Source of the DNA: Spirochaetaceae bacterium
GTDB taxonomy: Bacteria; Spirochaetota; Spirochaetia; DSM-27196; SLST01
DNA length: 64,000 bases
NCBI GenBank assembly: GCA_007118855.1
Contig: SKQU01000140.1
Location: forward strand, 17,289-81,288
Reading direction: 5' to 3'
Part shown: positions 4,394-42,468 of the stretch, piece by piece
Layout of the letters: every line of letters begins with the position of its first letter
Position numbering within the stretch: the stretch's first letter is position 1
The notes under the pieces: generated by a model
The model's input: only the letters and a program-made list of their open reading frames with translations
The model's database searches: none
What the model was told of the DNA's origin: nothing
Made by a program: the position numbers and the translations under genes

Positions 4394-4600
4394 ATGAGAA
4401 CGACGATCAACGGCGTTGAGAAGGAGATCGACGAAGCGACCTCCGTCCTTCGGCTCCTGGAAGTCGAGGATGTCGAGTCCCCCGACATGGTGGCCGTGCA
4501 GCTGAACGGCACGATTGTCGACCGGTCGCAGTACGCGCAGACGACCCTTGAGAACGGCGACGTCGTCGAGTTCCTCTACTTCATGGGTGGGGGAGCGTAG
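4394..4600 (+). CDS. ThiS/MoaD-family sulfur-carrier protein with a GG-Ala C-terminus (HcyS-like)
   Basis: 68 aa: MRTTINGVEKEIDEATSVLRLLEVEDVESPDMVAVQLNGTIVDRSQYAQTTLENGDVVEFLYFMGGGA. Size and pattern fit a beta-grasp carrier. The longer 4091 start in the track has no support. The stop overlaps the next start (TAGTG). Confidence 0.8.
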   Translation: MRTTINGVEKEIDEATSVLRLLEVEDVESPDMVAVQLNGTIVDRSQYAQTTLENGDVVEFLYFMGGGA

Positions 4601-5856: not shown

Positions 5857-5870
5857 TCCGCGGGGGTTCT

Positions 5871-6707
5871 ATGGCATTCAGTGACGAACAGGTTCAGCGG
5901 TACAGCAGGCACATTCTGCTGAAAGGGGTCGGCGGCAAGGGACAGCGGAAGCTGCTCAACGCCCGCGTCCTCGTCGTGGGTGCCGGAGGGCTCGGAAGCC
6001 CCATCTCGCTCTATCTCGCGGCCGCCGGTGTCGGCCACCTCGGCATCGTCGATCCGGACACCGTGGAGCTGAGCAATCTCCAGCGGCAGATCATCCATCA
6101 CACCTCGGACGTGGGGAAGGCCAAAGTCCAGTCGGCCGCCCGCAAGATCGCGGACCTCAATCCGGACGTGGAGGTGATCCCCTACGAACAACGCCTCGAC
6201 GCCGAGAACATCCTCGACATCATCTCCGGGTACGACTTTGTTGTGGAAGGGACCGACAACTTCCCCACGAAGTTCCTCGTGAACGACGCCTGCATTCTCT
6301 CCGACAAACCGTTCAACCAGGGAGGGATCCTTCGCTTCCAGGGGCAGACGATGACGCACGTACCGGGAAGCGCAAGCTACCGGTGCGTCTACCGCGAGCC
6401 CCCCCCGCCCGGGTCGGTTCCCACCTGCAGCGAGGCGGGCGTGCTCGGCGCGATCGCGGGGATGCTCGGCACGATCCAGGCGACCGAGACGCTGAAGTAC
6501 CTGCTCGGCATCGGGGATCTGCTGGTGAACCGGATCCTCTTCTTCGACGCCCTGTCCATGCAGACGAGAGTCGTCGACGTGAAACCCACCGAATGGGCCG
6601 AGCCGGCCGCCTCGAACACGAAGATCGACCGGCTCGTCGAGTACGAACAGCCGGCGTGCGACCTCAATCTTGAGCGCCAGTACGGGCCGAAGGGAGACGC
6701 GACATGA
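5871..6707 (+). CDS. ThiF/MoeB/HesA-family E1-like adenylyltransferase (HcyF/MoeZ-like, no rhodanese domain)
   Basis: QRYSRHILLKGVGGKGQRKLLNARVLVVGAGGLGSPISLYLAAAGVGHLGIVDPDTVELSNLQRQIIH, with YRCVY...PTCSEAGVLG. Only 278 aa, so there is no C-terminal rhodanese. Confidence 0.88.
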   Translation: MAFSDEQVQRYSRHILLKGVGGKGQRKLLNARVLVVGAGGLGSPISLYLAAAGVGHLGIVDPDTVELSNLQRQIIHHTSDVGKAKVQSAARKIADLNPDVEVIPYEQRLDAENILDIISGYDFVVEGTDNFPTKFLVNDACILSDKPFNQGGILRFQGQTMTHVPGSASYRCVYREPPPPGSVPTCSEAGVLGAIAGMLGTIQATETLKYLLGIGDLLVNRILFFDALSMQTRVVDVKPTEWAEPAASNTKIDRLVEYEQPACDLNLERQYGPKGDAT

Positions 6708-7396
6708 GCGAGCGGCTCGTCATACCGCAGGAGATCATCGCCGCTATCGCCGAGCAGGCGGTTGCCGAGGCCCCGAATGAGGCGTGCGGGTATCTGCGGG
6801 GCCTCGAGGGTCGCGTGCACGGCCGGATGGAGCTCACGAACGTGGATGCGAGTCCGGAGCACTTCACGCTCGATCCGCAGGAGCAGTTCGCCGCGCTGAA
6901 GGAGGCTCGCCGGTACGGTGAGCAACTCCTCGCGGTCTACCACAGCCATCCGGAGACGCCGGCGCGCATGTCCGACGAGGATATCAGGCTGGCCAACGAC
7001 CCGAAGACGGTCTACGTGATCCACAGCCTTGCCGACGGACGGACGCGCGGATTCCGCGTCGACCGCACCAGGAGCGTGGTTGAGGTGCCCATCGAGATCG
7101 TCCCGGCTGCACCGGAGACAACGAATCCGGAGACAACGAAAGAGGAGAAAGCCATGGCCGACACGCCGATTGACAGGGATCTCGATCTAAGCGGCGAGGT
7201 GTGCCCGTACACCTTCGTCAAGAGCAAGCTCGCGCTCGAGGAGCTCGACCCGGGACAGGTGCTTCGCGTGACCGTGGACAACAGCGAGAGCGCGAGCAAT
7301 GTACCCAGGAGCCTCTCACTCGAGGGTCATGACATCGTGAGTCTCGAGCAGGCCCGGGGGAAGTGGCTCATCACCGTGCGAAACGCCGACGCATAG
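6704..7396 (+). CDS. JAMM/MPN+ metalloprotease fused to a TusA/SirA-like sulfurtransferase domain
   Basis: The N-terminal ~140 aa carry EACGYL...AVYHSHPETPARMSDED (E...HxHx7Sx2D). The C-terminal ~78 aa read DLDLSGEVCPYTFVKSKLALEELDPGQVLRVTVDN (TusA-type Cys-Pro motif). ATGA overlap with the upstream gene. An in-frame internal ATG at 7154 has its own SD. Confidence 0.8.
   Translation: MSERLVIPQEIIAAIAEQAVAEAPNEACGYLRGLEGRVHGRMELTNVDASPEHFTLDPQEQFAALKEARRYGEQLLAVYHSHPETPARMSDEDIRLANDPKTVYVIHSLADGRTRGFRVDRTRSVVEVPIEIVPAAPETTNPETTKEEKAMADTPIDRDLDLSGEVCPYTFVKSKLALEELDPGQVLRVTVDNSESASNVPRSLSLEGHDIVSLEQARGKWLITVRNADA
7112..7141 (+). repeat. 15-bp tandem duplication in the JAMM-TusA linker
   Basis: ccggagacaacgaat (7112-7126) and ccggagacaacgaaa (7127-7141) encode PETTN and PETTK, immediately before GAGGAG (7142-7147) and ATG 7154. 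Confidence 0.9.
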
Positions 7397-11624: not shown

Positions 11625-12440
11625 TCAGATGTTGCTGACGAGGTACCCGCCATCGACCGGGATCGTGATCCCGGTGACGAAGCCGGCAGCCGAGTCGGAG
11701 GCGAGGAACAGCGACACGCCGGCGAGCTCGGACGCGTCTCCGAAGCGACCCGCGGGGGTGTGCGCGATCACGTCGCGGCCGCGCGGCGTGAGGTCGCCGG
11801 TTGCCTCGTCGATCAGAAGGGCCTTGTTCTGCTTCCCGATGAAGAATCCGGGGGCAATCGCGTTGACGCGGATGTTGTCCGGGGCGAACTCCTTCGCGCA
11901 GGCCATCGTGAGGTTCAGGACCGCGGACTTCGCCGCATCGTAGGCCCAGACTCCCGACAGCGGGACGTAGGAGGCCATCGACGCCATGTTGATGATCGCG
12001 CCTCCCATCTTCTTCTCCTTCCAGTACCCCACGGTGACCTTGGTCGGGACCATGAGCCCGGCCACGAGGTTGAGCCGAAGGATCTCTTCGAAGAGCTCGA
12101 TGTCTACGTCGACGAAGTCACTCTTTCCGCGGTTGCCGCCCGCGGCGTTGACCAGGACGTGCGGCCCGCCGAGCTCTGAAGCGCATGCTTCGACTGCCGT
12201 GCGAACGGAGTCCTCGGATATAGCGTCGACCTCGAGCGCCTGTATGCGGTCGCTCGCGTCGGTCTGCGCCGTGAGGCGCTCCTTCGCCGCCTGGGCGAAC
12301 TCCATCCTGATGTCCCACAGCGAGACGCTCGCGCCGGCCTTCAGGAAGGCTTCAGACATCGCGGCCGCGATGGCGCCACCACCGCCGGTGATGGCAACCG
12401 ACTTCCCCTCGAGCGAGAACATCCCTTTCAGATAGTCCAT
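11625..12440 (-). CDS. SDR-family oxidoreductase (UxuB-like fructuronate/mannonate reductase candidate)
   Basis: FSLEGKSVAITGGGGAIAAAM... is a Rossmann motif, and the YDAAK catalytic pair is present. The specific substrate is inferred only from context. Confidence 0.8.
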   Translation of the reverse strand: MDYLKGMFSLEGKSVAITGGGGAIAAAMSEAFLKAGASVSLWDIRMEFAQAAKERLTAQTDASDRIQALEVDAISEDSVRTAVEACASELGGPHVLVNAAGGNRGKSDFVDVDIELFEEILRLNLVAGLMVPTKVTVGYWKEKKMGGAIINMASMASYVPLSGVWAYDAAKSAVLNLTMACAKEFAPDNIRVNAIAPGFFIGKQNKALLIDEATGDLTPRGRDVIAHTPAGRFGDASELAGVSLFLASDSAAGFVTGITIPVDGGYLVSNI

Positions 12441-12459: not shown

Positions 12460-13689
12460 CTATGCCGGCCTTACGAGCTCTTTTCTGAATCGCACGAACA
12501 GGGGCAGGCCGTCCTTCATGACCGGCTTGACCTCTCCCTGGATGAGCGGGCGCGCGTACCGGTCGAACTCGCCGGTCACCGAGAACCCGTCCGCCGCGAT
12601 CCACTCGCGGGGGAACAGCTTCTCGCCGTTGGCCACGTCAGAGAGGAGCGCGAGACCGGTCTCGCACCGGTATGGGTCGTCCGAGGTCCGCTCCAGCGTG
12701 ACCATCTTTCCGTTCTCGCCGGCGAGCGCGCGTCGAACCGCTTCTGTCCCGAGCGTGTACGCCTCCATCGAATCGGTGAGCGAAGCGAAGTGCGCCCCGG
12801 TGCGTTGAATCGTGGAGGGGATCGCGAAACGCGCCTTGACCTTGATCTCGCGCTCGACGAGGTCCTTGACGAACAGACCGGCGCCGCCGAGCTGGGTGTG
12901 CCCAAAGGCGTCGCTGGCAAACTCACCCGTCTGGTTTGCGATGTAGGAGCCGTCAGGGTACTTCGTTCCCTCCGAGACGACGATAACGCACCGGTTGATT
13001 GTGGCGAGGTAGTGCTCGACACGGGCCTTGAAGGCCGCGACGTCGAAGGGTACTTCGGGAAGCAGGATGATATGCGGGGCGTCCTCTTCGCACCGCTTCG
13101 CGAGCGCCGTGCCCGCGGCGATCCACCCGGCGTTGCGCCCCATCGCCTCGATGACGTTCACGGTGTCCGTCGTGTACATCGCCTCGGTATCGCGGCCGGC
13201 CTCCATGACCATGGTCGCGAGGTACTTCACGACGCTGCCGTAGCCGGGAGCGTGGTCGGTGCAGGCGAGATCGTTGTCGATCGTCTTGGGGACGCCCATC
13301 GCTCGCAGCTCGTAGCCCTCGCGTGCGGCGAGCGCGCTGACCTTGTCGGCGGTATCCATCGAATCATTGCCGCCGATATAGAAGAAGTACCGGATATTGT
13401 ACCTTCTGAATACATCGAGGATCTTCCGGAAGTCCTCGTCGGTCCTGACCTTGTACCTGCACGAGCCGAGCGCCGAGGCGGGCGTCGCCTTCAGCCCTTC
13501 GATCACGGCCGGGTCTTCCCGCCGCAGATCGAAGAGCGCCCCGTTCAGCACCCCGAGAATACCGTTGTGCGCGGCGTACACGCCGGTGATCTCCTCGTGC
13601 TTCATCGCTTCCTGTATCACCCCGCACGCGCTCGCGTTGATGACCGCCGTCGGTCCTCCGCTCTGTGCCACAACGCAGTTGCCCTTCAT
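12460..13689 (-). CDS. 6-phosphofructokinase, long (about 410 aa) PfkA-family type, possibly PPi-dependent
   Basis: MKGNCVVAQSGGPTAVINAS...FFYIGGNDSMDTA...PKTIDNDL. GGNDS replaces the ATP-type GGDGS. The start is moved to ATG 13689 (SD GAGGGG); the 13803 start in the track adds 38 implausible residues. Confidence 0.85.
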   Translation of the reverse strand: MKGNCVVAQSGGPTAVINASACGVIQEAMKHEEITGVYAAHNGILGVLNGALFDLRREDPAVIEGLKATPASALGSCRYKVRTDEDFRKILDVFRRYNIRYFFYIGGNDSMDTADKVSALAAREGYELRAMGVPKTIDNDLACTDHAPGYGSVVKYLATMVMEAGRDTEAMYTTDTVNVIEAMGRNAGWIAAGTALAKRCEEDAPHIILLPEVPFDVAAFKARVEHYLATINRCVIVVSEGTKYPDGSYIANQTGEFASDAFGHTQLGGAGLFVKDLVEREIKVKARFAIPSTIQRTGAHFASLTDSMEAYTLGTEAVRRALAGENGKMVTLERTSDDPYRCETGLALLSDVANGEKLFPREWIAADGFSVTGEFDRYARPLIQGEVKPVMKDGLPLFVRFRKELVRPA

Positions 13690-13702
13690 CTGTTTTCGCC
13701 CC

Positions 13703-14470
13703 TCATTGAACGCCCGAACGATCGACGACGACCTCGATCCCGAAACTGCCCAGATGCTGAGCGTCGGCGAATCCGCCGTCGGTGACGAGTATATCGACAT
13801 CACCTGCTCGTGCGAACACCGAGAACGCCTCCCGTCGGTACTTGGACGAGTCGGCGAGCACGATCCGCCGCGAGGAGACTCCTATCACCGCCTGCTTCAG
13901 CTGCGACTCGATGATGTTCTGCGCGGAGAACACCCCGCGCTCGGAAAACCCCGTCGTGCCGAGGAAGCACGTCTCGATCTGGAACGACCGCAGCGATTCG
14001 ATCGCGATCGGCCCAATGAACGACCCGGCCTCGCTCCTGTAGCTGCCGCCGAGCGAGAAGAGCGACACCCCGGGCCTGCCCGCGAACTCGATCATCACGT
14101 CAATGGAGTTCGTCACGACCCGCAGGTTCATCTCGCTGATCTCCTTCGCGAGACAGAGACAGGTGCTTCCCGCGTCAATGTAGATCGTCTCGCCCTCGGC
14201 AACGAGTGACCGCGCCCTTCGCGCGATAGCCTTCTTCTCCTCGATTCGTTCGGCCTGACGCGTCCCGATCGGGCGCAGCAACCGTGTGTCCTGCGCCACC
14301 TGCGCGCCGCCGCGGGTCCGAATGAGACAGCCCATATCCTCGAGCGCCGAGAGGTCCTTTCGGATCGTCACTTCCGAGACTTCCAGCCGCGTGGCGAGCT
14401 CTGCGACGGTCGCGGTGCGCAGCAGCGAGAGTAGCCTCAGGATTTCTTCGTAGCGGGACGTGTTCCCCAT
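13703..14470 (-). CDS. DeoR-family transcriptional regulator
   Basis: MGNTSRYEEILRLLSLLRTATVAELATRLEVSEVTIRKDLSALEDMGCLIRTRGGA is the HTH. The C-terminal sugar-phosphate-binding domain reads YIDAGSTCL...VVTNS. Start set at ATG 14470. Confidence 0.9.
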   Translation of the reverse strand: MGNTSRYEEILRLLSLLRTATVAELATRLEVSEVTIRKDLSALEDMGCLIRTRGGAQVAQDTRLLRPIGTRQAERIEEKKAIARRARSLVAEGETIYIDAGSTCLCLAKEISEMNLRVVTNSIDVMIEFAGRPGVSLFSLGGSYRSEAGSFIGPIAIESLRSFQIETCFLGTTGFSERGVFSAQNIIESQLKQAVIGVSSRRIVLADSSKYRREAFSVFARAGDVDILVTDGGFADAQHLGSFGIEVVVDRSGVQ

Positions 14471-14484
14471 GCTTCGTTCACTTT

Positions 14485-14585
14485 CGTATTGCACTCTAAA
14501 ACGAAGCGCCGTATTCGTCAACGCCCGGTCCGGGGAGCCTGAACGGGCCGATTGCGGGCAGAAGTCCGGCTTGACAACCGTATTC
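14485..14585. promoter_or_regulatory. three direct CGTATT(C/G) repeats in the divergent DeoR/HAD control region (candidate operator sites)
   Basis: cgtattg at 14485, cgtattc at 14510 and cgtattc at 14579. The third lies in the spacer of the candidate HAD-operon promoter. Confidence 0.3.
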
Positions 14586-14637: not shown

Positions 14638-15531
14638 ATGGACACAAGAGATCCGGCCCAGGCGCTTCGAGACATGAAGCCGGAGAGGGAGTTCTTCATC
14701 GGCTTCGACTCCGATGGCTGCGTATTCGACACGATGGAGATCAAGCACAAGGAGTGTTTCTGCCCGAATTACATCGGCAGCTACAATCTGCAGGCGGTGT
14801 CCAGGTATGCCCGCGAAGTATGGGAGTTTGTGAACCTGTACTCGAAGTCCCGCGGATGCAACCGCTTTCTCGCGGTTACCCGCGCCATGGAGCTTCTCGC
14901 GCGGCGCCCGGAGACCGCAGCCCGCGGGGTCAAGGTGCCCGAACTGAAGGCTCTTCGCGACTGGATCGGCCGCGAGACCAAGCTGGGGAACCCGGCGCTG
15001 AAGGCCGAGCTCGACAGAAACGCCGACGAGGAGCTGCGCAACGTATACGCGTGGTCGCTCGCCGTGAACGAGGCGATCGGGGCGATGGTGCGCAACGTGC
15101 CGCCCTTTCCTCTCGTGCGCGAGTCGCTCGAGAAGATCTCCGGAAGGGCCGATGTCATCGTGGTGTCGCAGACGCCGCTCGAGGCTCTCGAGCGCGAGTG
15201 GGAGGAGCACGGCATCGACGGGATGGTCCGGATGATCGCCGGACAGGAGATGGGAACGAAGGCGCAGCACATACAGTACGCCGCGAAGGACAAGTACCCG
15301 TCGGACAGGATCCTCATGATCGGCGACGCTCCCGGGGATTTCGACGCCGCGAAGAATAACGGCGCGCTCTTTTTCCCGGTCAACCCGGGACACGAGGAAG
15401 CCTCCTGGGAGCTGTTTCACGGAGAGGCGCTCGACAGGTTCTTCGCCGGCAGCTACGCCGGCGAGTACGAGGAGCGGCTGATCGAGGAGTTCGACCGATA
15501 TCTGCCCGAGACCCCTTCCTGGGAGGAATGA
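14638..15531 (+). CDS. HAD-superfamily hydrolase (phosphatase-like, large cap)
   Basis: FFIGFDSDGCVFDT is the DxDG nucleophile motif; VIVVSQTP and MIGDAPGDFDAA are HAD motifs III/IV. Start at ATG 14638 after AAGGAAAG. Confidence 0.8.
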   Translation: MDTRDPAQALRDMKPEREFFIGFDSDGCVFDTMEIKHKECFCPNYIGSYNLQAVSRYAREVWEFVNLYSKSRGCNRFLAVTRAMELLARRPETAARGVKVPELKALRDWIGRETKLGNPALKAELDRNADEELRNVYAWSLAVNEAIGAMVRNVPPFPLVRESLEKISGRADVIVVSQTPLEALEREWEEHGIDGMVRMIAGQEMGTKAQHIQYAAKDKYPSDRILMIGDAPGDFDAAKNNGALFFPVNPGHEEASWELFHGEALDRFFAGSYAGEYEERLIEEFDRYLPETPSWEE

Positions 15532-15534
15532 GCC

Positions 15535-16809
15535 ATGCTGTACTATGGAGCCGGGTCAGCCGGCACCCGGATGACCGATGAGGATCTTCGAAGCGCGTTG
15601 CACGAGGCGTTGGACAGGATCGGCCGACGAGACAAGGTGATCGCCGTCCCGCCGGACATCACGCGATTCCACAGCCGGGCGGGCCTCATGACGCAGTACG
15701 CTTACGAGTACTACGGGTCTTCACTCGCCGACATCCTGCCGGCCCTCGGGACCCACACCCCGATGAGCGACGAGGAACGCGTCGAGATGTTCGCCTCGGT
15801 CCCGGCCGATCTCTTTCGCGCGCACAGGTTTCGCACGGACATCGTGACGCTCGGAGAGGTGCCTGCTGGTTTCATCGAGCGGGTTTCCCAAGGCAAGCTC
15901 TCGTTCACGTGGCCCGCGCAGACGAACAAACTCGTCGCGGATGGAGGACACGACCTCATTCTCTCACTCGGTCAGGTCGTTCCGCACGAAGTCATCGGCA
16001 TGGCCAACTACAACAAGAATATTTTCATCGGCACCGGAGGCAGCGAAGGCATAAACAAGAGCCACTACCTCGGAGCGGTCCACGGGATGGAGCGGATCAT
16101 GGGTCGGGCGGATAACCCGGTACGCCAGGTCCTCAACTACGCGCACCGGGAGTTCGCCTCACACCTGCCGATCGTGTTCGCCCATACGGTGGTCGGACGC
16201 GAGAGCGACGGCTCGCTCGCGCTGAAGGGACTCTTCGTGGGCGACGACGAAGAGTGCTTCCTGCGGGCCGCGGAGCTCTCGCTCGAGGTGAACTTCACGA
16301 TGGTCGAAGAGCCGTTCAGAAAGGTCGTCGTCTACCTCGACCCCCAGGAGTTCCGCAGTACCTGGCTGGGGAACAAGAGCGTCTACCGGACGCGGATGGC
16401 CATCGCAGATGGAGGGGAGCTCGTGGTCCTCGCGCCGGGCGTGAAGGAGTTCGGTGAGGACAAGGAAATAGACAGGCTCATCCGGCGGTACGGCTACGTG
16501 GGTACCGACCCGATCATCCGGCTCGTTGAAGAGAGAGAGGATCTTCGCGCCAATCTCTCCGCGGCCGCGCATCTGATCCACGGCAGCTCCGACGACAGGT
16601 TCACCATCACCTACTGCCCGGGGCATCTCTCAGAAGAGGAAGTGGAAGGAGTCAGCTTCCGCTACGGGGATCTCGACCGGATGATGAAGCGATACGATCC
16701 CACACAGCTCAGGGACGGATACAACACCCTCCCGGACGGCGAGGAGATCTACTACGTCTCGAATCCCGCGGTCGGCCTCTGGGCACACGCCGACCGGTTC
16801 AACGCATAG
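15535..16809 (+). CDS. LarA-family (nickel-pincer-type 2-hydroxyacid racemase/epimerase-like) protein, substrate unknown
   Basis: 424 aa. DLILSLGQVVPHEVIGMANYNKNIFIGTGGSEGINKSHY aligns without gaps to the L. plantarum LarA segment as I remember it (DLLISEGFIESHFFAGFSGGRKSVLPGIASYKTIMANHS). This keeps the H-x9-K-x15-H spacing. ALGTHTPMS matches ATGFHRPST. The alignment is from memory and unverified. Confidence 0.5.
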   Translation: MLYYGAGSAGTRMTDEDLRSALHEALDRIGRRDKVIAVPPDITRFHSRAGLMTQYAYEYYGSSLADILPALGTHTPMSDEERVEMFASVPADLFRAHRFRTDIVTLGEVPAGFIERVSQGKLSFTWPAQTNKLVADGGHDLILSLGQVVPHEVIGMANYNKNIFIGTGGSEGINKSHYLGAVHGMERIMGRADNPVRQVLNYAHREFASHLPIVFAHTVVGRESDGSLALKGLFVGDDEECFLRAAELSLEVNFTMVEEPFRKVVVYLDPQEFRSTWLGNKSVYRTRMAIADGGELVVLAPGVKEFGEDKEIDRLIRRYGYVGTDPIIRLVEEREDLRANLSAAAHLIHGSSDDRFTITYCPGHLSEEEVEGVSFRYGDLDRMMKRYDPTQLRDGYNTLPDGEEIYYVSNPAVGLWAHADRFNA

Positions 16810-16820
16810 GAGCGAAGAGA

Positions 16821-18290
16821 ATGGCAAACACTGACGGCAGAAGGGCCGACATCGGCCTGATCGGTCTCGCGGTGATGGGGCAGAACCTCGTGCTCAACAT
16901 GGCCGACAACGGCTTCACCGTCGCGGTGTTCAACCGCACCGTCTCCAAGGTCGATGACTTCCTCGCCGACGCGGCGGAAGGATACGACACCGTGCTCGGT
17001 GCGCACAGCATGGAAGAGTTCATCGGCATGCTCAAACGGCCGCGGAAGGTCATGCTGATGGTGAAGGCCGGCGACGTAGTGGACAAGTTCATAGAGACCG
17101 TCCTGCCTCATCTTGAAGAGGGAGATCTCATCATCGACGGCGGAAACTCACACTTCCCGGACACGACTCGCCGGACGAAGTCGTTGGCCGAGAAGGGCAT
17201 CCTCTATATCGGTACCGGCGTCTCGGGAGGCGAGGAGGGCGCGCGTCATGGTCCGTCGATTATGCCGGGGGGCAATCCAGGGGCGTGGCCGCTCGTGAAG
17301 GAGATTTTCCAGGCGATCGCCGCCAAAACCGAAGACGGCGAGCCGTGCTGCGAGTGGGTTGGTGAGGAAGGCGCCGGGCACTACGTCAAGATGGTCCACA
17401 ACGGCATCGAGTACGGCGACATGCAGCTCATCTGCGAGGCGTACCAGCTCATGAAAGACGGCCTCGGGATGACGCCCGATGAGATGCACGAAGTCTTCGC
17501 CGAGTGGAATACCGGCGAGCTCGACAGCTATCTCATAGAGATCACCCGCGATATCCTCGCGTTCAAAGACACCGACGGCTCGCCGCTGGTGGAGAAGATC
17601 CTCGACACGGCCGGCCAGAAAGGCACCGGGAAGTGGACCGGCATCAGCTCTCTCGAGCTTGGTGTGCCCGTTACGCTGATAGGAGAGGCCGTGTTCGCGC
17701 GGTGTCTGTCGGCGATGAAAGATGAGCGGGTCAAGGCGTCGAAGGTACTCGACGGTCCCAGTCCGTCGTTCTCGGGTGACCGGCAGGCCTTCATCGAGGA
17801 CATCCGGCAGGCGCTGCTTGCGTCGAAGATCGTCTCCTACGCGCAAGGTTACATGCTGATGCGTGAGGCCGCGCGCGAGATGGGGTGGAAGCTCAACTTC
17901 GGCGGCATCGCCCTGATGTGGCGCGGGGGATGCATTATCCGCAGCGTCTTCCTCGGCAGGATCAAGGACGCGTTCGACAGGACCCCTGACCTCACCAATC
18001 TGCTGCTCGACGATTACTTCCGGGGCGTGATCGACCGGTGTCAGGATCCGTGGAGGCGTGTCGTCGCGCAGTCGGTCACGATGGGGGTGCCGGTCCCTGC
18101 GTTCGCGACCGCACTCACCTTCTTCGACGGCTACCGAACGGAGCGCCTGCCGGCGAACCTGCTTCAGGCGCAGCGTGACTACTTTGGCGCGCATACCTAC
18201 GAGCGCCTTGACAAACCGCGGGGCGAGTTCTACCACACGAACTGGACCGGCACCGGAGGCACGACCTCGGCGTCGACGTACCAGGTGTAG
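16821..18290 (+). CDS. gnd: 6-phosphogluconate dehydrogenase, decarboxylating
   Basis: [30 protein letters not shown]...GGNSHF...[20 protein letters not shown]...[18 protein letters not shown]. Confidence 0.95.
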
Positions 18291-18328: not shown

Positions 18329-19750
18329 ATGACGAGGTTCATCACCGAGGACTTCCTGCTCTCGAACGAGCCGGCGCGGCGGCTCTACCACGAGCATGCC
18401 GCCGCGATGCCCATCTTCGACTACCACTGCCATCTGCCTCCGGGCCAGATCGCAACGGATCATCGGTTCGCGAATCTCGCCGAGATATGGCTTGCCGGCG
18501 ATCACTACAAGTGGCGGGCAATGCGGGCGAACGGGGTCGACGAGCGGCTCGTCACCGGATCGGCCGACGAACGCGAGAAGTTTCAGGCATGGGCGCAGAC
18601 CGTGCCGGCGACGGTTGGCAATCCGCTGTACCACTGGACGCACCTGGAGCTCGACCGGCCGTTCGGGATCAGCGACGTGCTGCTCGACGGCTCAACCGCC
18701 GAGTCGGTCTGGAACCGGGCGAACGAGCTGCTCGCGACAGGGGAGTTCACCGCGCGGGGTATCATGCGCCGGATGAACGTCAGGTTCGTCTGCACGACCG
18801 ACGATCCGCTCGACGACCTCGAGCACCATCGGTCGCTTGCAGCCGACGCGTCGTTCGCGGTGACGGTGCTGCCGGCCTTCCGGCCGGACAAGGGCATACA
18901 CATCGAGGCTCCTGATGTCTTTCGCGACTGGGTACGGCGGCTCGAAACCGTGGTCGCCCGCGAGCTTCACTCCTACGACGATTTCATCGAGGCGCTCGTC
19001 GAGCGGCTCGACTACTTCCACGAAGCCGGGGCGCGCATCAGCGACCATGCGCTGCAGGCACCGGTATTCGTGATCTCCGACGCGGCCGGCCTGCAGGCGA
19101 CGTACCGGAAAGTCCGGGACGGCGGACAGGCGAGCATCGAAGAGGCGGCCGCTTTCCAGACCGACGTGCTGCTCGCGCTTGGGCGAGCCTACGCGAAGCG
19201 CGGATGGGTGATGCAGCTGCACATGAACGCGCTGCGCAACAACAATCCGCGGCTGTTTGCCGAGCTGGGGCCCGACACCGGGTTCGACTCGATCGCCGAC
19301 GAGCCGGTCGCCGAGCCGCTGAACCGGCTGCTCGGAGAGCTCGACCGTAGCGCCGAGCTTCCAAAGACGATCCTGTATACGCTGAACGCGTCGAAGAACG
19401 ATGTGCTCGCGTCCACGATCGGCAACTTCCAGGACGGATCGGTCCCGGGCAAGATGCAGTTCGGCTCGGCATGGTGGTTTCACGACCAGAAAGACGGCAT
19501 GACGAAGCAGATGGTGAGTCTCGCGAATATCGGGCTGCTCAGCCGATTCGTCGGCATGCTCACCGACTCACGCAGTTTTCTGAGCTACACGCGCCACGAC
19601 TACTTCCGTCGACTGCTCTGCGATCTCATTGGCGGATGGGCGCAGGCCGGTGAGGCACCGCGTGATTTCCGGCTGCTCGGCGAGATGGTGGAAAACATCT
19701 GCTGGCATAACGCCCGGGGCTACTTCGGCGTACCGCTCAAGGAGGAGTGA
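18329..19750 (+). CDS. uxaC: glucuronate isomerase
   Basis: [35 protein letters not shown]...[17 protein letters not shown] is the canonical UxaC N-terminus. Confidence 0.93.
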
Positions 19751-19751
19751 G

Positions 19752-21380
19752 GTGGAGAACCTGGTCCGTCTCGTAGTGGAACGTGATCTGCTGAACATGA
19801 GTCAGGCGGAGCTGGACGCGCTGAAGCCGGAGGAGGACGACGATCTCCTGCTCGGCTCCACCCGCGGGGCGCTCTACAAGCGCAGCCTGCAGGTCGTAGG
19901 CAACGCGCTCGTCGCGATCGCCCGGATGCCCGCAGGCCGCGGATCCGGCGATGCGGGCGGGGCCCGCGGCGGCGCGCCGGGTGTGACCGGGCCGTTCGGG
20001 TCGACGACCTTTGAGAAGCGCCTGGTCGTGTTCAGCCCGGAACCGGTGCGGTTCGGGTTCTCCGGCCATTCCGGAATGGCCGGAGCCGTTCATTATCAGG
20101 AGGTGGTTCCGGGACCGGTCAACCTTGGTCCGCTGTGGGAGCTCTTCTCCTGGACCCGTCCGTGCTCACTGCGTGAGAAGCGGACGACGATCGGTATGGG
20201 CGATCGGATCGGCATGGCGACGCCCGGACACATCCGTGCCGCGCGGCGGTTCGACGTTTCGCCAGTACTCGCCCAGCAGAGCATCCGCGAGCTCGACTTC
20301 ACCGGCAGGAGCTTTTCGGACGTCGTTGCCGATGCGAGCTTTCTCGTCTTCCAGGAAGCCTTCACCTCCGGGTATGGCGCCGACGGCGACCACCTGAAGA
20401 CCATTCCCGACATCGACCGGGCGCTCGCCAACGGGATGCCGATGATCACGCTCGACCTGACCGGGGTCATGAGACCGCAGGCTGCCGACTGGGGCGACGC
20501 TGAGATCACGGCCGCCTTCAATCGCCTTCCCGCCGACTTCCGGCGCCGCGTCGAGGAGGAGTATGCCGGCCGCTCCTTCGCGCTCGAATCCGCGCGAATC
20601 GAGATCGATGAGGCGACCGCCCGTCGATGCGCGGTCATGTACGGGCCCGCGCTCTCCTTCAGCGAGGAGGTCGATCGGCACCTCGCGCGACGGACCGGCG
20701 GCGCGTACGATCTGGAGATCAGCGTCGACGAGACGACTACACCCACGCTTCCGAGTCATCACTACTTCATCGCGCGGGAGCTGGAGGTTCGCGGTGTTGC
20801 GGTCAACAGCCTCGCGCCCCGGTTCGTCGGCGACTTTCAGAAGGGGATCGACTACATCGGCGATCTCGATGAGTTCACCCGGCAGTTCACCGTGCACGCA
20901 GAGATCGCCCGGGCGGCCGGCGGGTACAAGGTGAGCGTCCATTCCGGCAGCGACAAGTTCAGCGTCTACCCGGTCGTCGGCGACCGGACGCGGATGCGGC
21001 TGCACCTGAAAACGTCCGGGACGAGCTGGCTCGAGAGCCTGCGAACGATCGCGCAGGCCGATTCCGGCACGTACCGCCTGATCCACCAGCGTGCCTTCGA
21101 TTACTTTCCAGCCGCTCTCAAGGCATACCACATCACGGCGGATGTCGACGCAATCGCGCCGCTCGCCGACCGGAGCGACGCACAGCTTCCGGCCTATCTC
21201 GACGACGCGGGCTGCCGGCAACTGCTTCACATCTCCTACGGCGGACTGCTGCGGGATCCGGAGGTGCGCGAGCGCTACTTCGCGGCCCTGCACGCGCATG
21301 AGAGTCCGCATGTGGCGAACGTACGGAATCACATCGTGAGGCATCTCGAACTCCTGGGTGCCCCGAAATCCGGCGCTTGA
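19752..21380 (+). CDS. uxaE: tagaturonate/fructuronate epimerase (UxaE family)
   Basis: GMGDRIGMATPGHIRAARRF...PVLAQQSIRE...GADGDHLK...VHSGSDKFSVYP resemble the Thermotoga TM0440-type UxaE blocks. The start is uncertain: GTG 19752 follows AGGAGG, ATG 19797 is the alternative, and the 19629 track start overlaps uxaC. Confidence 0.7.
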   Translation: MENLVRLVVERDLLNMSQAELDALKPEEDDDLLLGSTRGALYKRSLQVVGNALVAIARMPAGRGSGDAGGARGGAPGVTGPFGSTTFEKRLVVFSPEPVRFGFSGHSGMAGAVHYQEVVPGPVNLGPLWELFSWTRPCSLREKRTTIGMGDRIGMATPGHIRAARRFDVSPVLAQQSIRELDFTGRSFSDVVADASFLVFQEAFTSGYGADGDHLKTIPDIDRALANGMPMITLDLTGVMRPQAADWGDAEITAAFNRLPADFRRRVEEEYAGRSFALESARIEIDEATARRCAVMYGPALSFSEEVDRHLARRTGGAYDLEISVDETTTPTLPSHHYFIARELEVRGVAVNSLAPRFVGDFQKGIDYIGDLDEFTRQFTVHAEIARAAGGYKVSVHSGSDKFSVYPVVGDRTRMRLHLKTSGTSWLESLRTIAQADSGTYRLIHQRAFDYFPAALKAYHITADVDAIAPLADRSDAQLPAYLDDAGCRQLLHISYGGLLRDPEVRERYFAALHAHESPHVANVRNHIVRHLELLGAPKSGA

Positions 21381-22233: not shown

Positions 22234-23481
22234 ATGTCCTTCCCGGCTTTGCTGAACGACGGCGGCTTCCTCGAGTTCCTGCGGGCCCATCCCCTCTTCG
22301 CGATCGGGCTCATGCTGATCGTCGGGTATCTTCTCGCGCGCGTCGCGGGCGCCGTTCGGCTGCCGGAGATCACCGGCTTCATCCTCGCCGGGCTGGCCAT
22401 GGGAGCCGGCGGACTGGCGATCCTCGGCAAGGGTGCGGCTGAGGACCTGGCGGTCATCACGGAGGTGGCGCTCGGTATCATCGCGCTGACGATCGGCGGC
22501 GAGCTGCGGCTTGCGAAGCTGCGACGTGTCTATCGTTCGGTCGGATGGATTACCGCCGGGCAATTCGTCCTGACCTTCTTCCTCGCCGGCGGTGCGCTCC
22601 TGCTGCTCTCGATTCCGCTTCCCTATGCGCTGCTGCTCGGCGCGATCGCCACGACGACCTCGCCGGCGGCCGTGATCGCGATCGTCCAGGCGACGCGGGC
22701 GCGTGGGCCCTTCGTCGACCACCTGAACGGAACGGTTGCCCTCGGCGATGCCTTGTCGATCGCCGTCTTCGGCGTCATCCTGGCCATGGTGCCCGCGATG
22801 CTCGGCGACGGCTCGGGAGCGTCTCTGCTGATCTGGCGGTCGGTGGCGGATCTCGCCGTGAGTCTGGCCCTCGGCGCGCTGATCGGCTTCGTGATATTTG
22901 CGACCACGCGACGCCAGTCGAATCCCGGCGAGGTCATGATTCTCACGCTCGGGTTTCTCTTTCTGTCCACGGCGCTGGCCGTCTCGCTGCGGTTCTCGCC
23001 GCTCTTGATGAATATGGCGGCCGGCGCGGCGATCGCGAATCTCAGCGCCGGGAATACCCGGATCTTCCGGACTCTCGAACCGCTGACCCCGCCGGTGTAT
23101 GCGCTCTTCTTCGTCATTGCCGGCACCAAGCTCAACCCGTCGCTCCTGTTCGGGGCCGAGGTGCTGGTGCTCGGGGCTGCGTTCGTGGCGGCGCGCTGGG
23201 TCGGGAAGTATTTCGGCTCGTATCTTGGCGCGCGAATCGGTGGAAGCGAGCCGGTTATCCGCAACTGGATTGGAGTCGGGTTATTCGCGCAGGCCGGGGT
23301 CGCGCTGGGGCTCGTCCTGCTCCTGCAGGCGGCGAGCGAGTTGGGACAGATACCCGGGCTCTCGCCCGACCTCGTGCGGACGGCGACCAATGTGGTGCTG
23401 CTGTCGATCTTCGTCAACGAGATATCCGGCCCGCCGATCGCCAGGCTCGCCGTGACCCGGGCCCTGGATCTGGAGGAGTGA
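22234..23481 (+). CDS. cation:proton antiporter (CPA2/Kef-type membrane domain only)
   Basis: 415 aa, polytopic and hydrophobic. LPEITGFILAGLAMG at the start of TM2 is typical of the Na_H_exchanger family. No KTN/RCK domain is present. Confidence 0.85.
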   Translation: MSFPALLNDGGFLEFLRAHPLFAIGLMLIVGYLLARVAGAVRLPEITGFILAGLAMGAGGLAILGKGAAEDLAVITEVALGIIALTIGGELRLAKLRRVYRSVGWITAGQFVLTFFLAGGALLLLSIPLPYALLLGAIATTTSPAAVIAIVQATRARGPFVDHLNGTVALGDALSIAVFGVILAMVPAMLGDGSGASLLIWRSVADLAVSLALGALIGFVIFATTRRQSNPGEVMILTLGFLFLSTALAVSLRFSPLLMNMAAGAAIANLSAGNTRIFRTLEPLTPPVYALFFVIAGTKLNPSLLFGAEVLVLGAAFVAARWVGKYFGSYLGARIGGSEPVIRNWIGVGLFAQAGVALGLVLLLQAASELGQIPGLSPDLVRTATNVVLLSIFVNEISGPPIARLAVTRALDLEE

Positions 23482-24317
23482 TGGAACTTGCAGACGCACT
23501 TGACCCGGTAGCCTGTGCCGTCGGGCTGAAAGCCCGAGACAAGGAGGAGGCGCTGCGCAAGCTCGCGGAGCTGGGGACCCGTTCGGACGCGCTCTCCGGG
23601 GTGGGAGTCGAGACGATCTACCAGGTGCTGAGCGATCGTGAGCGGCAGGGCTCGACCGGTTTCGGCAAGGAGGTCGCCCTTCCGCACGCCCGCGTGCCGG
23701 GCATGGATCGTTTCATCGTCTACTTCGCGGTCTTCCCCGGCGGGGTGCCCTTTGAAGCGCTGGACCGCAAGAAGGCGAAGGTCTTCTTCGTCATCCTCGG
23801 GCCGGCCGAGCAAGTCCAGCAGCACCTGCGGCTGCTCGCCGCCGTGTCGCGGATACTCGCGCACACGAATGCGAAACAGGAGTTGCTGCGCGTGCGCACC
23901 GTGGAGGCCGCCCTTGAGTCGATCCAGCGGCACGCGGGGCAGCCGAGTCTCGCGACATCGCAGGCCGGCGGTCCCGAGGGCACGATGAAGCTGCTGCTCG
24001 TGACCGTCTACTTTGAGCAGTTCATGTACGACATCCTCGAATCGCTGCTCGAGTTCGGCGTTGAGGGGGCGACGATCCTCGAGTCGAGCGGCATGAGCCG
24101 GTACATCTCGAACGTGCCGCTCTTTGCGGAGTTCATCGGCTTCATGAACGAGAGCAAGAACACCAGCCACACGATCCTCGCGATCGTCCCGGAGCGTCAC
24201 ATCGCCGCAATCGTCGAGCGGATCGAGGGGGTCACCGGTGACCTCGACAAGCGCGAAGGCGCGATCGTGCTCGCGCTCGATCTGAGCTTCTCAAAGGGCA
24301 CGATGAAGATGCTCTAA
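23481..24317 (+). CDS. PtsN-like PTS EIIA (type 2) domain fused to a C-terminal PII-like domain
   Basis: [24 protein letters not shown] and [27 protein letters not shown] align with E. coli PtsN blocks, including the phosphorylatable His. The last ~110 aa ([37 protein letters not shown]...[23 protein letters not shown]...GAIVLALDL) follow the beta-alpha-beta, T-loop, beta-alpha-beta pattern of GlnB. ATGA overlap with the antiporter. The 590-aa track ORF is real only from 23481 onward. Confidence 0.75.
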
Positions 24318-26233: not shown

Positions 26234-27253
26234 TCATAGCGCGAGCGAGACCGCCGCGTGCGCCGCTCCGTAGAGCGACACCTGGTAGTCCTTGATCAGG
26301 ACCACCGGCGTCTCGCGAAGCAAGGGGGTGATCCGTTCGTTGTAGTTGGACTCGAACGCACGCATGAACCGGTGATCGTCGGTGAACCAGCGTTCGTTCT
26401 TCGCCGCGATGCCCCCGGCGAGGTAGAGCCCGGCGAACGGCAGGAGGAAGAGCGCCGTAGTGCTCGCGAACTGCGCGTAGAGCTCCACGAAGTGCTTCAT
26501 GATGTGCGAGCACCCGGTATGGGTGCCGGCCGCCGCGGCTACGGCTCCAGGCCGGTCGGTGGGAGGAAGACCCAGGATCTGTGAGACCGTCTCGTCACGA
26601 TCGAGACGTTCGCTCTCATAGTAGAAGGCGAACAGATTGGCGATTCCCTGGCCGGAGACGTACTGTTCGGCCCCCGGCTGCTGAGGGAACCGCCGCCGCA
26701 GGAAGCGCGTGAATTCGTCGGTCACCGGATCCATCGAGGCGAAGTCCGCGTGCCCTCCCTCCGAGGGGTGAGCGGCGTAGTGCCCCCGATCCTCGATCAG
26801 GTATCCGGTGCCGAGGCCGGTCCCCGCTCCCACGACCGCCCGCACGGTCCCGCGGGGGGCGGGGGTTGTTCCGTCAGGGTGGGCGAAGACGGTGGTGTCG
26901 ATCCGGGGATGCGAATCGAGAAGCGGCAGCGCGTAGCATATCGCCGAGAAGTCGTTGATCACGAAGACCGGTATACCCACGAAGCGCTCGACGTCGGCAC
27001 GGTCAATCGTGAAGTGAACGTTCGTCATGCGACAGATCCCGTCGCGGATGGGGCCGGCCCCGCTGAGGCAGCACAGCCGAGCGGCGCGCCAGAGCTCCGG
27101 GTGGCGGTCACGGAAGCGTGCAAGGGCATCCTTGACGTCCGTCAGCGCCGCCGTGTCGAACCGCTCTCGCGATTGGAGGGCAAAACGCCCCTCGTCCTCT
27201 TCGATCGCCGCGATGCTTGTGTTCGTTCCTCCAATATCCCCAACCAGGATCAT
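26234..27253 (-). CDS. glk: glucokinase (Glk family)
   Basis: MILVGDIGGTNTSIAAIE...VINDF.A..YALP...AVVGAGTGLGTGYL...SEGGHADFA. Confidence 0.85.
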   Translation of the reverse strand: MILVGDIGGTNTSIAAIEEDEGRFALQSRERFDTAALTDVKDALARFRDRHPELWRAARLCCLSGAGPIRDGICRMTNVHFTIDRADVERFVGIPVFVINDFSAICYALPLLDSHPRIDTTVFAHPDGTTPAPRGTVRAVVGAGTGLGTGYLIEDRGHYAAHPSEGGHADFASMDPVTDEFTRFLRRRFPQQPGAEQYVSGQGIANLFAFYYESERLDRDETVSQILGLPPTDRPGAVAAAAGTHTGCSHIMKHFVELYAQFASTTALFLLPFAGLYLAGGIAAKNERWFTDDHRFMRAFESNYNERITPLLRETPVVLIKDYQVSLYGAAHAAVSLAL

Positions 27254-42110: not shown

Positions 42111-42183
42111 GCCCCTGTAGCTCAGTTGGCAGAGCACATCCATGGTAAGGATGGGGTCATCGGTTCAAATCCGATCGGGGGCT
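42111..42183 (+). tRNA. tRNA-Thr (anticodon GGT)
   Basis: Hand-folded cloverleaf: acceptor GCCCCTG/CGGGGGC, D arm GCTC-AGTTGGCA-GAGC, anticodon stem CATCC/GGATG with loop ATGGTAA, T arm ATCGG-TTCAAAT-CCGAT. CCA is not encoded. Confidence 0.9.
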
Positions 42184-42219
42184 CGAGTGATGCAAGAAGT
42201 GTACCCACGGCCGCCTGTC

Positions 42220-42248
42220 TTGACTTTTTTGTGAGTCGGTCTTAGGCT
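42220..42248 (+). promoter_or_regulatory. candidate promoter of rpmG (TTGACT-N17-TAGGCT)
   Basis: TTGACT at 42220-42225 and TAGGCT at 42243-42248. Confidence 0.35.
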
Positions 42249-42284
42249 AAGGTGCGGTTTTCTACCGAAAGAAGAGGGACGGGT

Positions 42285-42461: not shown

Positions 42462-42468
42462 TATTCTC

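Follow-up and report, generated by a model that had tools for sequence, protein, structure and literature searches.

Among the groups of LarA homologues catalogued by Desguin et al. (2020, Sci Rep 10:18123), group 18 ('G2E3') is described as a "putative hexonate epimerase". Its listed neighbours are an SDR, Gnd, a ribokinase-family kinase and UxaC, and Table S1 of that work gives no LarBCE linkage for the group; for group 19 it suggests that the native substrate may be an isomer or an aldaric acid. The enzymes GntE1 and GntE2 epimerise D-mannonate/D-gluconate, and LarAH15 of Phytophthora nicotianae interconverts the same two acids with a narrow substrate spectrum, a Km of 9.4 mM and a kcat of 111 s-1 (Urdiain-Arraiza and Desguin 2024, JBC 301:108069). 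Lactate racemase activity is absent from all three. The cloning primer of LarAH15 encodes M-A-TLLFAEG, which matches the group-18 entry PITG_09435, and by this N-terminal match LarAH15 appears to be of the group-18 type. Extracts of Lactobacillus suebicus exhibit an orphan 6-phosphomannonate 2-epimerase activity and do not epimerise free mannonate (Valk et al. 2020, Front Microbiol 10:3027).

The DNA surveyed here, a stretch of 64 kb from an uncultured spirochaete (hereafter the window), carries a genuine 424-aa ORF with an ATG start, which the first-pass annotation had proposed as a LarA-family epimerase. By profile, structure and residue checks, the protein is a member of the LarA (nickel-pincer nucleotide, NPN) superfamily. 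The profile of the LarA N-terminal region, Pfam Lar_N, matches at E 2.1e-8 (34 bits, cut-off 23.3), and the NCBIfam equivalog NF052594 (NPN_18_hexonate, "nickel-dependent putative hexonate epimerase") at 652 bits against a cut-off of 500 bits, covering model positions 3-410 out of 411. The AF2 model (pLDDT 86.6) leads to the same superfamily, to which its 19 best Foldseek matches in the PDB all belong (TM 0.55-0.77); the TM score is 0.77 to GntE2 of Thermotoga maritima (4NAR) and 0.66 to the lactate racemase LarA (5HUQ), both at a probability of 1.0. The 4NAR sequence is also retrieved by phmmer (E 1.6e-33), and it is the sole match of a profile built from 24 group-18 sequences when run against the PDB sequences. 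The protein is 60-64% identical to group-18 members of Dataset S1 (S. thermophila, M. roseus) and 50% identical to a diatom member of the group, while the top match in a scan of GTDB genomes reaches 73%. A 72%-identical homologue is named 'D-mannonate epimerase' in one NCBI record. The profile score and the signature described below place the 424-aa protein in Desguin's group 18, within the GntE (gluconate 2-epimerase) branch.

The link to LarA itself is drawn from the Pfam and NCBIfam profiles, from a MAFFT alignment with TM0442 as a bridge and from the fold search; pairwise BLAST of the 424-aa protein against LarA is not significant (E 0.43) and pairs the wrong segments. The first-pass annotation had aligned the peptide DLILSLGQVVPHEVIGMANYNKNIFIGTGGSEGINKSHY, residues 140-178 of the protein, without gaps to LarA. 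In the L. plantarum reference sequence, taken from Dataset S1 of Desguin 2020, the segment reads DLLISEGFIESH174FFAGFSGGRK184SVLPGIASYKTIMANH200S, and the gapless alignment is therefore correct, with 10 of 39 positions identical and H151/K161/H177 opposite H174/K184/H200. The H-x9-K-x15-H pattern claimed from that alignment is conserved as well, K161 and H177 standing at the same x9 and x15 spacing as in LarA; since it arises in 218 of 20000 shuffles of the 424-aa protein (~1%), the motif by itself is weak evidence. The motif ALGTHTP, previously likened to the His108 region, contains H74, which MAFFT sets opposite H108.

In the MAFFT alignment the catalytic His pair of LarA (H108 and H174) corresponds to H74 and H151, the cofactor-tethering Lys184 and the Ni-ligand His200 to K161 and H177, and the carboxylate-binding D72/R75 and K298 to D41, R44 and K281. 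All of these catalytic, cofactor and carboxylate residues (D41, R44, H74, H151, K161, H177 and K281) show no variation across 24 homologues of several phyla. The 20-residue group-18 signature, D R H H E V K H V W L N K S A A L I H S, is complete in the protein and includes H74, H151, E152, V153, W277, L278, N280 and K281, followed in the C-terminal part by S342-A344-A345-L347-I348-H349-S351. Signature positions 1-13 were assigned by MAFFT against LarA; the last 7, which MAFFT misaligns to the truncated LarA, were read from LSAAAHLIHGSS, a motif that recurs unchanged in the group-18 members published in Dataset S1. The protein also follows the GntE pattern: E152 and V153 come directly after the catalytic H151, and W277 occupies the position of Y294. 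The position of LarA I362 is occupied by Ser351, as throughout group 18, whereas groups 19 and 20 have Arg. An invariant Arg, R355, lies four residues past Ser351; it is one of the residues specific to group 18, along with K175, R191 and R285/R287.

Table 1. Features of the locus, with coordinates in the window and the basis of each assignment
Feature	Coordinates	Strand	Size and basis
SDR oxidoreductase, presumed fructuronate reductase	11625..12440	-	271 aa; NF006132
PFK-family protein, short pyrophosphate-dependent type	12460..13692	-	410 aa from M38; NF010675; 3K2Q
DeoR-family regulator	13703..14473	-	likely start M17 of ORF 13703-14521; Pfam HTH_DeoR, DeoRC
HAD-superfamily protein	14638..15531	+	~297 aa from M17 of ORF opening at 14590; Pfam HAD_2
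LarAH group-18 gene, NPN-dependent hexonate 2-epimerase (predicted)	15535..16809	+	424 aa; NF052594; Lar_N; 4NAR; AF2 + Foldseek
gnd, NADP-dependent decarboxylating 6-phosphogluconate dehydrogenase	16821..18290	+	489 aa; TIGR00873; Pfam 6PGD, NAD_binding_2
uxaC, glucuronate/galacturonate isomerase	18329..19750	+	473 aa; Pfam UxaC E 1.2e-206; NF002794 630 bits
uxaE, tagaturonate/fructuronate epimerase	19764..21380	+	538 aa; Pfam UxaE E 6.1e-152

The minus strand carries DeoR-PPi-type PFK-SDR, and the plus strand HAD-LarAH18-Gnd-UxaC-UxaE (Table 1). The neighbours named in the first-pass annotation, a HAD phosphatase gene, gnd, uxaC and uxaE, are borne out by HAD_2, TIGR00873 and the two Pfam profiles (E 1e-206 and 6e-152), and its intergenic gaps of 4 and 12 nt are corrected to 3 nt (HAD stop 15531 to 15535) and 11 nt (16809 to 16821). 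The gnd product scores 781.6 bits with TIGR00873 (cut-off 426.7). The mechanical ORF of uxaE begins at 19629, overlapping uxaC; with the likely GTG start, at 19764, the protein has the same length as its homologue at the related locus L001. The DeoR gene is divergent from the HAD-LarAH18 operon and holds the same position in loci L001, L007, L074, L080, L087 and L088. The HAD protein (AF2 model, pLDDT 93.8) has a DSDG motif I, a GDAPGD motif IV and a large C1 cap, and the PFK-family protein has the motifs GGNDS and PKTIDND, with 538.6 bits for NF010675 (cut-off 273) and E 3.9e-111 to 3K2Q. The nearest subfamily for the SDR is that of D-mannonate oxidoreductase (UxuB-SDR), with 235 bits for NF006132, below the cut-off of 281. 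A GntK-type kinase, uxuA, kdgK, kdgA and UxaB were not found within the 64-kb window, nor were larB/larC/larE found there or in nine Pfam-annotated related loci. The ribokinase-family kinase is absent at the locus, and HAD and PFK-family genes stand there locally. A scan for promoter and terminator consensus sequences inside the operon gave nothing beyond the shuffle expectation.

The context of LarAH18 was surveyed in 85 loci from many phyla. Gnd and a UxuB-type SDR each occur within 4.5 kb of LarAH18 in 51 of the 85 loci, and UxaC lies within 8 kb in about 40. A PfkB kinase immediately flanks LarAH18 in 32 loci, mostly in the order SDR-kinase-LarAH18-Gnd, and 40 loci have neither a PfkB kinase nor a HAD gene. 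The eight-gene set is found again, rearranged, in a 72%-identical Spirochaetia relative; the local gene set likewise recurs in rearranged form in other Spirochaetota, and the HAD-LarAH18-Gnd triad is kept across phyla. The HAD gene never occurs together with the LarAH18-flanking PfkB kinases, and in the sampled loci the PFK-family gene appears only alongside the HAD gene. KduI and KduD are close to LarAH18 in some loci, and a PdxB-like enzyme is seen at Bacteroidales loci. The operon logic (UxaC, UxaE, a mannonate-oxidoreductase-like SDR and Gnd) is conserved in relatives, and the present work establishes the conserved gene neighbourhood along with the family membership, the fold and the residues.

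The 424-aa enzyme is probably an NPN-dependent epimerase of 2-hydroxyacids, with a six-carbon sugar acid as substrate and inversion at its C2, the conversion of D-mannonate to D-gluconate being the best candidate reaction. The first-pass annotation had suggested just such a D-mannonate/D-gluconate C2 epimerase, and the suggestion gains support from the group-18 placement, the activity of LarAH15 and the conserved operon logic. Since group 18 and its uronate/Gnd link are already published, the interpretation is supported and not new. Substrate, direction, cofactor loading and kinase identity are the parts of it that we infer. By analogy with LarA, the cofactor would be tethered to K161 and its nickel ligated by H177, while H74 and H151 would alternate as acid and base and the hydride would be parked on the pincer pyridinium ring, with a transient 2-keto intermediate during the inversion of C2.

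The setting of the enzyme would be a DeoR-controlled uronic-acid regulon, in which glucuronate and galacturonate would be isomerised by UxaC, tagaturonate converted to fructuronate by UxaE and fructuronate reduced to mannonate by the SDR. The LarAH18 epimerase would then make gluconate and a kinase 6-phosphogluconate, from which Gnd would yield ribulose-5-phosphate, CO2 and NADPH. Uronates would thus reach the pentose-phosphate pathway in a redox-neutral way, instead of taking the UxuA/KdgK/KdgA route. That 40 of the 85 loci are without a dedicated kinase fits a gluconate product, which a housekeeping kinase could manage. Against the mannonate/gluconate reading stand the high Km of GntE for free mannonate (9-120 mM), the score of the SDR under the mannonate-oxidoreductase cut-off, a group 18 without the Arg of groups 19 and 20 at the I362 position, and a 64-kb window without a GntK-type kinase, uxuA, kdgK, kdgA or larB/larC/larE.

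An unlikely alternative, though one of appreciable weight, is that the enzyme acts after a kinase, as a 6-phospho-D-mannonate/6-phospho-D-gluconate 2-epimerase that feeds Gnd directly. The kinase would be the LarAH18-flanking PfkB type in Bacteroidota and other phyla; in this window its place might be taken by the HAD protein or by the PFK-family protein of the PPi type. The direct flanking of LarAH18 by a PfkB kinase in 32 of the 85 loci argues for this order of steps, as do the resemblance of these kinases to the sugar-acid kinases KdgK and IolC and not to GntK, the position of Gnd, nearly always directly downstream of LarAH18, the mM-range Km of GntE for free mannonate, and the L. suebicus extracts, which act on 6-phosphomannonate and leave free mannonate (Valk et al. 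2020). Counted with these is a search of the accessible literature in which no publication was found tying LarA enzymes to 6-phosphomannonate; the same search found none on 'LarAH18' or on nickel-pincer enzymes with phosphogluconate as substrate, and 'phospho' has 0 occurrences in the 2024 LarAH paper (Urdiain-Arraiza and Desguin 2024). However, LarAH15, apparently of the group-18 type, turns over free D-mannonate with a kcat of 111 s-1, and the 40 loci without an adjacent kinase or HAD are fitted more easily by a gluconate product. The active-site signature is also invariant whether HAD, PfkB or neither is the neighbour, and the difference from GntE1/2 at position 362 is the loss of an Arg in group 18, not a gain. 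L. suebicus has no established LarA homologue, because the candidate of Valk et al. is described as aldose-1-epimerase-like. As proof of a LarA-type 6-phosphomannonate epimerase this candidate (A0A0R1W1H9) was rejected, TM0042 and not TM0442 being cited for it. At the HAD-type loci, phosphate handling of an unconventional kind is distinctly unlikely: LarAH18 would act there on 6-phosphomannonate/6-phosphogluconate with HAD, with or without the PPi-type PFK, in place of the PfkB kinase, or HAD and the PdxB-like enzyme would protect Gnd. HAD may take over the function of the PfkB sugar-acid kinase of other lineages, for instance by phosphoryl transfer, or may, with the PdxB-like enzyme of Bacteroidales, spare Gnd by removal of the inhibitor 4-phosphoerythronate. 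Sequence and fold searches of the PDB with the HAD protein return generic subfamily-IA HAD matches only, and thus no function is assignable to it. The PFK-family protein was considered as a sugar-acid kinase and rejected: by NF010675 and 3K2Q it belongs to the short PPi-PFK subfamily as an ordinary member, and its sequence therefore carries no sign of an altered substrate. It may serve glycolysis downstream of the pentose-phosphate pathway.

Another acid of the uronate pathways (altronate, idonate, or a uronic or aldaric acid) is highly unlikely as the substrate, with mannonate/gluconate then a side activity. Desguin et al. 2020 kept group 18 at 'hexonate' and considered an isomer or aldaric acid for group 19; at the Q295, V297 and I362 positions group 18 has L, N and S where groups 19/20 have T, A/G and R, and the KduI and KduD genes near LarAH18 in some loci point the same way. 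Yet UxaE funnels tagaturonate to fructuronate and UxaB was not found in the window, so mannonate is the expected hexonate; the adjoining Gnd points to a gluconate skeleton, and the narrow spectrum of LarAH15 is centred on gluconate/mannonate. It is extremely improbable that the protein is a lactate racemase, in spite of the shared LarA fold and catalytic residues and of the name 'nickel-dependent lactate racemase' that JGI gives to many homologues. The NCBIfam LarA equivalog NF033504 yields 15.9 bits against a cut-off of 460, the residues that select the substrate in lactate racemases, F175/F176, Y294/Q295 and W358/T359, are replaced, with E152/V153 in place of F/F, and GntE1, GntE2 and LarAH15 are without lactate racemase activity. 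The neighbours, too, belong to uronate and pentose-phosphate, not lactate, metabolism.

The analysis confirms that an uncultured spirochaete carries a widespread, named LarA subgroup within an operon that leads from uronates to the pentose-phosphate pathway, and a redox-neutral uronate route is attractive for pectin fermentation. If 6-phosphorylated mannonate were the substrate, LarAH18 would supply a gene for the orphan 6-phosphomannonate 2-epimerase activity of L. suebicus. The points that would matter are the kinase feeding Gnd, the choice between free and 6-phosphorylated mannonate, and the role of the tightly coupled HAD protein.

Compared with the described systems, the 424-aa protein shares with L. 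plantarum LarA (5HUQ) the fold, all of D72/R75/H108/H174/K184/H200/K298 and presumably the proton-coupled hydride-transfer mechanism, but it is only ~15% identical, has other substrate pocket residues and fails the LarA equivalog. GntE2/TM0442 of T. maritima (LarAH20, 4NAR) is the best solved-structure match and has the same catalytic set and, in the proposal of Rodionova 2012 as cited by a later paper, the same role, from mannonate by way of gluconate and 6PG to Gnd; it differs in its 25% identity, in its signature (S, T, G, N, R vs V, L, N, H, S here) and in its pairing with a gluconate kinase gene, none being found in this 64-kb window. The L. suebicus route (Valk et al. 2020) also runs through UxaC, UxaE and fructuronate reductase, then 6-phosphogluconate and Gnd, and is likewise redox-neutral, yet the kinase precedes the epimerase there, an order that this locus may or may not share. 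LarAH15 is NPN-dependent too and, as is usual for GntEs, shows E and V next to the catalytic His, but it is eukaryotic, stands without operon context and is assigned to the group-18 type by its N-terminal match to PITG_09435. The closest system is Desguin group 18/NF052594, with the same SDR, Gnd and UxaC neighbours; its published neighbour table has neither a HAD nor a PFK-family gene, the two partners at this locus. The 424-aa protein itself, above the equivalog cut-off and with the full signature, does not differ from the group, and the gene is a confirmed LarA-family epimerase of a catalogued subgroup, largely an ordinary find.

The 424-aa ORF, LarAH18, that the first-pass annotation placed at 15535-16809 is present with an ATG start, and its GC3 of 0.82, in a window of 63% G+C, is like the bias of the surrounding real genes. 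The peptide quoted from it (residues 140-178) had been aligned without gaps to a LarA segment. Against the L. plantarum LarA sequence in Dataset S1 of Desguin et al. 2020, in which D72, R75, H108, H174, K184 and H200 occupy their published positions, this alignment is correct (10/39 identical), and H151, K161 and H177 do lie opposite LarA H174, K184 and H200. By themselves, the gapless alignment and the H-x9-K-x15-H motif are weak evidence for homology, since the motif is found in 218 of 20000 shuffles of the protein (~1%) and pairwise BLAST with LarA gives a non-significant hit in the wrong register (E 0.43). Homology to LarA is solid on four independent lines: the Pfam Lar_N match (E 2.1e-8, with a score that exceeds the gathering threshold); NCBIfam NF052594, "nickel-dependent putative hexonate epimerase" (652 bits vs a cut-off of 500, near-whole model); phmmer against PDB 4NAR, the T. 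maritima TM0442/GntE2 apoprotein (E 1.6e-33); and the fold of an AlphaFold2 model (pLDDT 86.6), whose best 19 PDB matches all belong to the LarA superfamily. The latter include 4NAR (TM 0.77), LarA (5HUQ/6C1W, 0.65-0.66), the broad-spectrum racemase 9EID and the malate racemase 7S91, and the first match beyond them falls to E 6e-3 and TM 0.18. The first-pass observation is thereby confirmed.

Within the superfamily, the protein carries the residues of group 18, which was defined by Desguin et al. 2020 with 25 members, including Spirochaeta, Treponema, Tannerella, Acidobacterium, Phytophthora and diatoms, and labelled "putative hexonate epimerase"; none of its enzymes was among those assayed there. 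A MAFFT alignment with 24 homologues (64-89% identical), TM0442 and LarA places D41, R44, H74, H151, E152, V153, K161, H177, V196, W277, L278, N280 and K281 opposite LarA D72, R75, H108, H174, F175, F176, K184, H200, I220, Y294, Q295, V297 and K298, respectively, all 13 being invariant in the homologues except L278 (V in 1/24). These residues reproduce exactly the first 13 positions of the published group-18 signature ("D R H H E V K H V W L N K S A A L I H S"), and its last seven correspond to the motif LSAAAHLIHGSS, identical in published group-18 sequences. Among the Dataset S1 proteins, identity is 64% to Melioribacter roseus, 60% to Spirochaeta thermophila and 50% to the diatom P. tricornutum (all group 18), and 25% to T. 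maritima GntE2 (group 20). The named matches and the related loci belong to Spirochaetota, Bacteroidota and Acidobacteriota.

Coordinates of the LarAH18 neighbourhood and of other features of the window
Feature	Position	Strand	Remarks
Cys/Met PLP-dependent enzyme, then ThiF, then JAB-TusA fusion protein	4600-7396		resembles a thiocarboxylate system of the sulfur-carrier-protein type
SDR	11625-12440	-	best match D-mannonate oxidoreductase subfamily, 235 bits, below cut-off 281
PFK-family gene, pyrophosphate-type	12460-13692	-	GGNDS, PKTIDND; NF010675 539 bits; 3K2Q E 4e-111
DeoR regulator	13703-14473	-	divergent from plus-strand operon
HAD	14638-15531	+	ends 3 nt before epimerase gene
LarAH18	15535-16809	+	ends 11 nt before gnd
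gnd	16821-18290	+	ends 38 nt before uxaC
uxaC	18329-19750	+	
uxaE	about 19764-21380	+	
Na+/H+ exchanger-family ORF	22234-23481		overlaps the next ORF in a different frame
ORF with PTS EIIA-2 domain	22545-24317		22234-24317 could be a frameshift, or an antiporter fused to an EIIA-like regulatory domain
Glucokinase	26234-27253	-	
2-oxoacid dehydrogenase E1 alpha + beta fusion, 817 aa	35455-39241	-	E1_dh + Transket_pyr + Transketolase_C; E2 acyltransferase gene adjoins, second DeoR regulator and L-fucose isomerase just beyond E2
tRNA-Thr(GGT), tRNA-Trp(CCA)	42111-42543		
506-aa ORF	42792-44315	-	probably spurious, given unusual codon-position GC and no match in Pfam
rplJ (L10; Pfam), then rpoB, rpoC, more ribosomal-protein genes (ORF sizes only)	44500-64000		after the tRNAs

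All eight genes from the SDR to uxaE recur in a Spirochaetia relative with a 72%-identical LarAH18, in the order UxaE-UxaC-SDR-PFK-DeoR / HAD-LarAH-Gnd, uxaC-uxaE having moved to the minus-strand operon; that the set stays together despite being rearranged speaks for a functional unit. The PFK-family gene shares a DeoR-controlled operon with the mannonate-oxidoreductase-like SDR, its position is conserved in several Spirochaetota, and in one Bacteroidota locus (L010) it adjoins HAD-LarAH18-Gnd. Outside its ribosomal part, nearly every credible ORF of the window was scanned, and neither larB, larC and larE nor GntK, UxuA, KdgK and KdgA were found.

LarAH18 is probably a C2 epimerase that depends on the nickel-pincer nucleotide and turns D-mannonate into D-gluconate as part of a redox-neutral uronate route. 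UxaC and UxaE would yield fructuronate, which the SDR would reduce to mannonate; LarAH18 would turn this into gluconate, a kinase would form 6-phosphogluconate, and Gnd would deliver ribulose-5-phosphate. By analogy with LarA, the chemistry would be proton-coupled hydride transfer to the pincer, with His74/His151 as acid/base, K161 as the tether and H177 as the nickel ligand. A candidate for the gluconate kinase is a housekeeping GntK from another part of the genome, the PFK-family protein being less likely. The reaction itself is known from LarAH15 of Phytophthora nicotianae, described by the same laboratory in 2024 as a D-gluconate 2-epimerase of narrow spectrum (D-mannonate Km 9.4 mM, kcat 111 s-1). 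Its cloning primer encodes M-A-T-L-L-F-A-E-G, matching "MTLLFAEGSKTAEL" of PITG_09435, a P. infestans protein assigned to group 18 in Dataset S1. Judged by this N-terminus, LarAH15 would be a group-18-type enzyme, so that the type would already have been shown to perform the D-mannonate/D-gluconate reaction, in support of the mannonate/gluconate interpretation made in the first-pass annotation.

The commonest group-18 neighbours listed by Desguin et al. 2020 are SDR (36%) and 6-phosphogluconate dehydrogenase (32%), followed by ribokinase-family kinases (16%), UxaC (12%) and KduI (12%); LarB/C/E are absent from that list. For the present comparison, 80 loci were fetched from distinct GTDB species and neighbours were labelled by tblastn with the proteins of the window and of two Bacteroidota loci. 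Over 85 non-redundant loci, Gnd and a UxuB-type SDR each lie within 4.5 kb of LarAH18 in 51, UxaC within 8 kb in about 40, an adjacent PfkB-family kinase in 32 and a HAD of the window type within 3 kb in 13. The HAD and the PfkB kinase are mutually exclusive: no locus has both, and 40 have neither (Fisher p 0.0014, uncorrected for phylogeny). The kinases, of ~360 aa and of two types, lie directly beside LarAH18 (e.g., L004:8898-9974, L005:8902-9981 and L051:8914-9993, in loci of other genomes) in Bacteroidota, Ignavibacteriota, Verrucomicrobiota and Planctomycetota. Among curated models they come nearest to KDG kinase and IolC rather than to GntK, but they reach no cut-off and have no equivalog. 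Both types are candidate kinases for gluconate or mannonate. The many loci without a dedicated kinase fit gluconate as the product.

The HAD occurs in Spirochaetota, Bacteroidota (L010, L021), Planctomycetota (L028, L032) and Neomarinimicrobiota (L026), and the HAD-LarAH18-Gnd triad, which reappeared in 3/3 further lineages when starting from HAD homologues, spans at least five phyla (the window, the five loci just named and L087-L089). The PFK-family gene was seen only with the HAD (7/7), which also occurs without it. The HAD motifs are complete (DSDG, the Ser/Thr motif, the conserved Lys and GDAPGD) and the cap is unusually large. The family has >8000 database matches of ~295 aa, none with a functional name. 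Its model is confident (pLDDT 93.8); neither model nor sequence gives a specific match to solved structures, the fold matches being generic subfamily-IA HADs (TM 0.4-0.6) such as phosphoglycolate-phosphatase-like proteins, BT2127 pyrophosphatase, beta-phosphoglucomutase and mannitol-1-phosphatase. Ideas considered are a phosphoryl-transfer enzyme replacing the PfkB kinase, a phospho-hexonate phosphatase, or a repair phosphatase for 4-phosphoerythronate. This compound is reportedly a potent inhibitor of 6-phosphogluconate dehydrogenase (Collard et al. 2016; Sachla and Helmann 2019), and it also serves as substrate for PdxB, whose gene is the other accessory neighbour of Gnd. A PdxB-like gene (~380 aa, D-2-hydroxyacid dehydrogenase, 2-Hacid_dh + DUF3410) stands beside LarAH18 in 21 loci, mostly of Bacteroidales and Ignavibacteria (L011, L015, L017, L021, L022, L030, L067 and others; e.g., L022:11282-12421), usually between LarAH18 and Gnd and often alongside a Gfo/Idh/MocA oxidoreductase; the HAD is also present in only 1/21.

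The main alternative, that the enzyme acts on 6-phosphomannonate, is unlikely, although the kinase-LarAH18-Gnd adjacency would suit the kinase-first order that Valk et al. describe for Lactobacillus suebicus, in whose extracts a 6-phosphomannonate 2-epimerase activity was measured, and no test of phosphorylated acids as substrates was found in the LarA literature examined. Against it stand the activity of LarAH15 on free mannonate, an active site that does not vary between kinase-containing and kinase-free contexts, and the candidate of Valk et al., which appears not to be a LarA homologue. Valk et al. 2020 (PMC6978723) describe this candidate epimerase as aldose-1-epimerase-like and cite "TM0042", which points to a confusion with TM0442 (GntE, homologous to LarA). 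Epimerization of a different hexonate is quite improbable. The automatic name "nickel-dependent lactate racemase" is frequent among the homologues, yet it is wrong for the window protein, which reaches just 15.9 bits on the lactate-racemase equivalog NF033504 (cut-off 460); a lactate racemase is scarcely credible.

For the putative mannonate/gluconate epimerase, the remaining interest lies in the phosphorylation step, in free versus phosphorylated substrate, and in the HAD-LarAH18-Gnd triad with its PfkB exclusivity, of which no description was found in the searchable literature. According to papers citing it, the idea of GntE as the link from mannonate through gluconate to GntK/Gnd comes from Rodionova et al. 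2012, and a 72%-identical homologue is called "D-mannonate epimerase" in one NCBI record; neither the family nor the mannonate/gluconate hypothesis is new to the literature or to the NCBI naming models.
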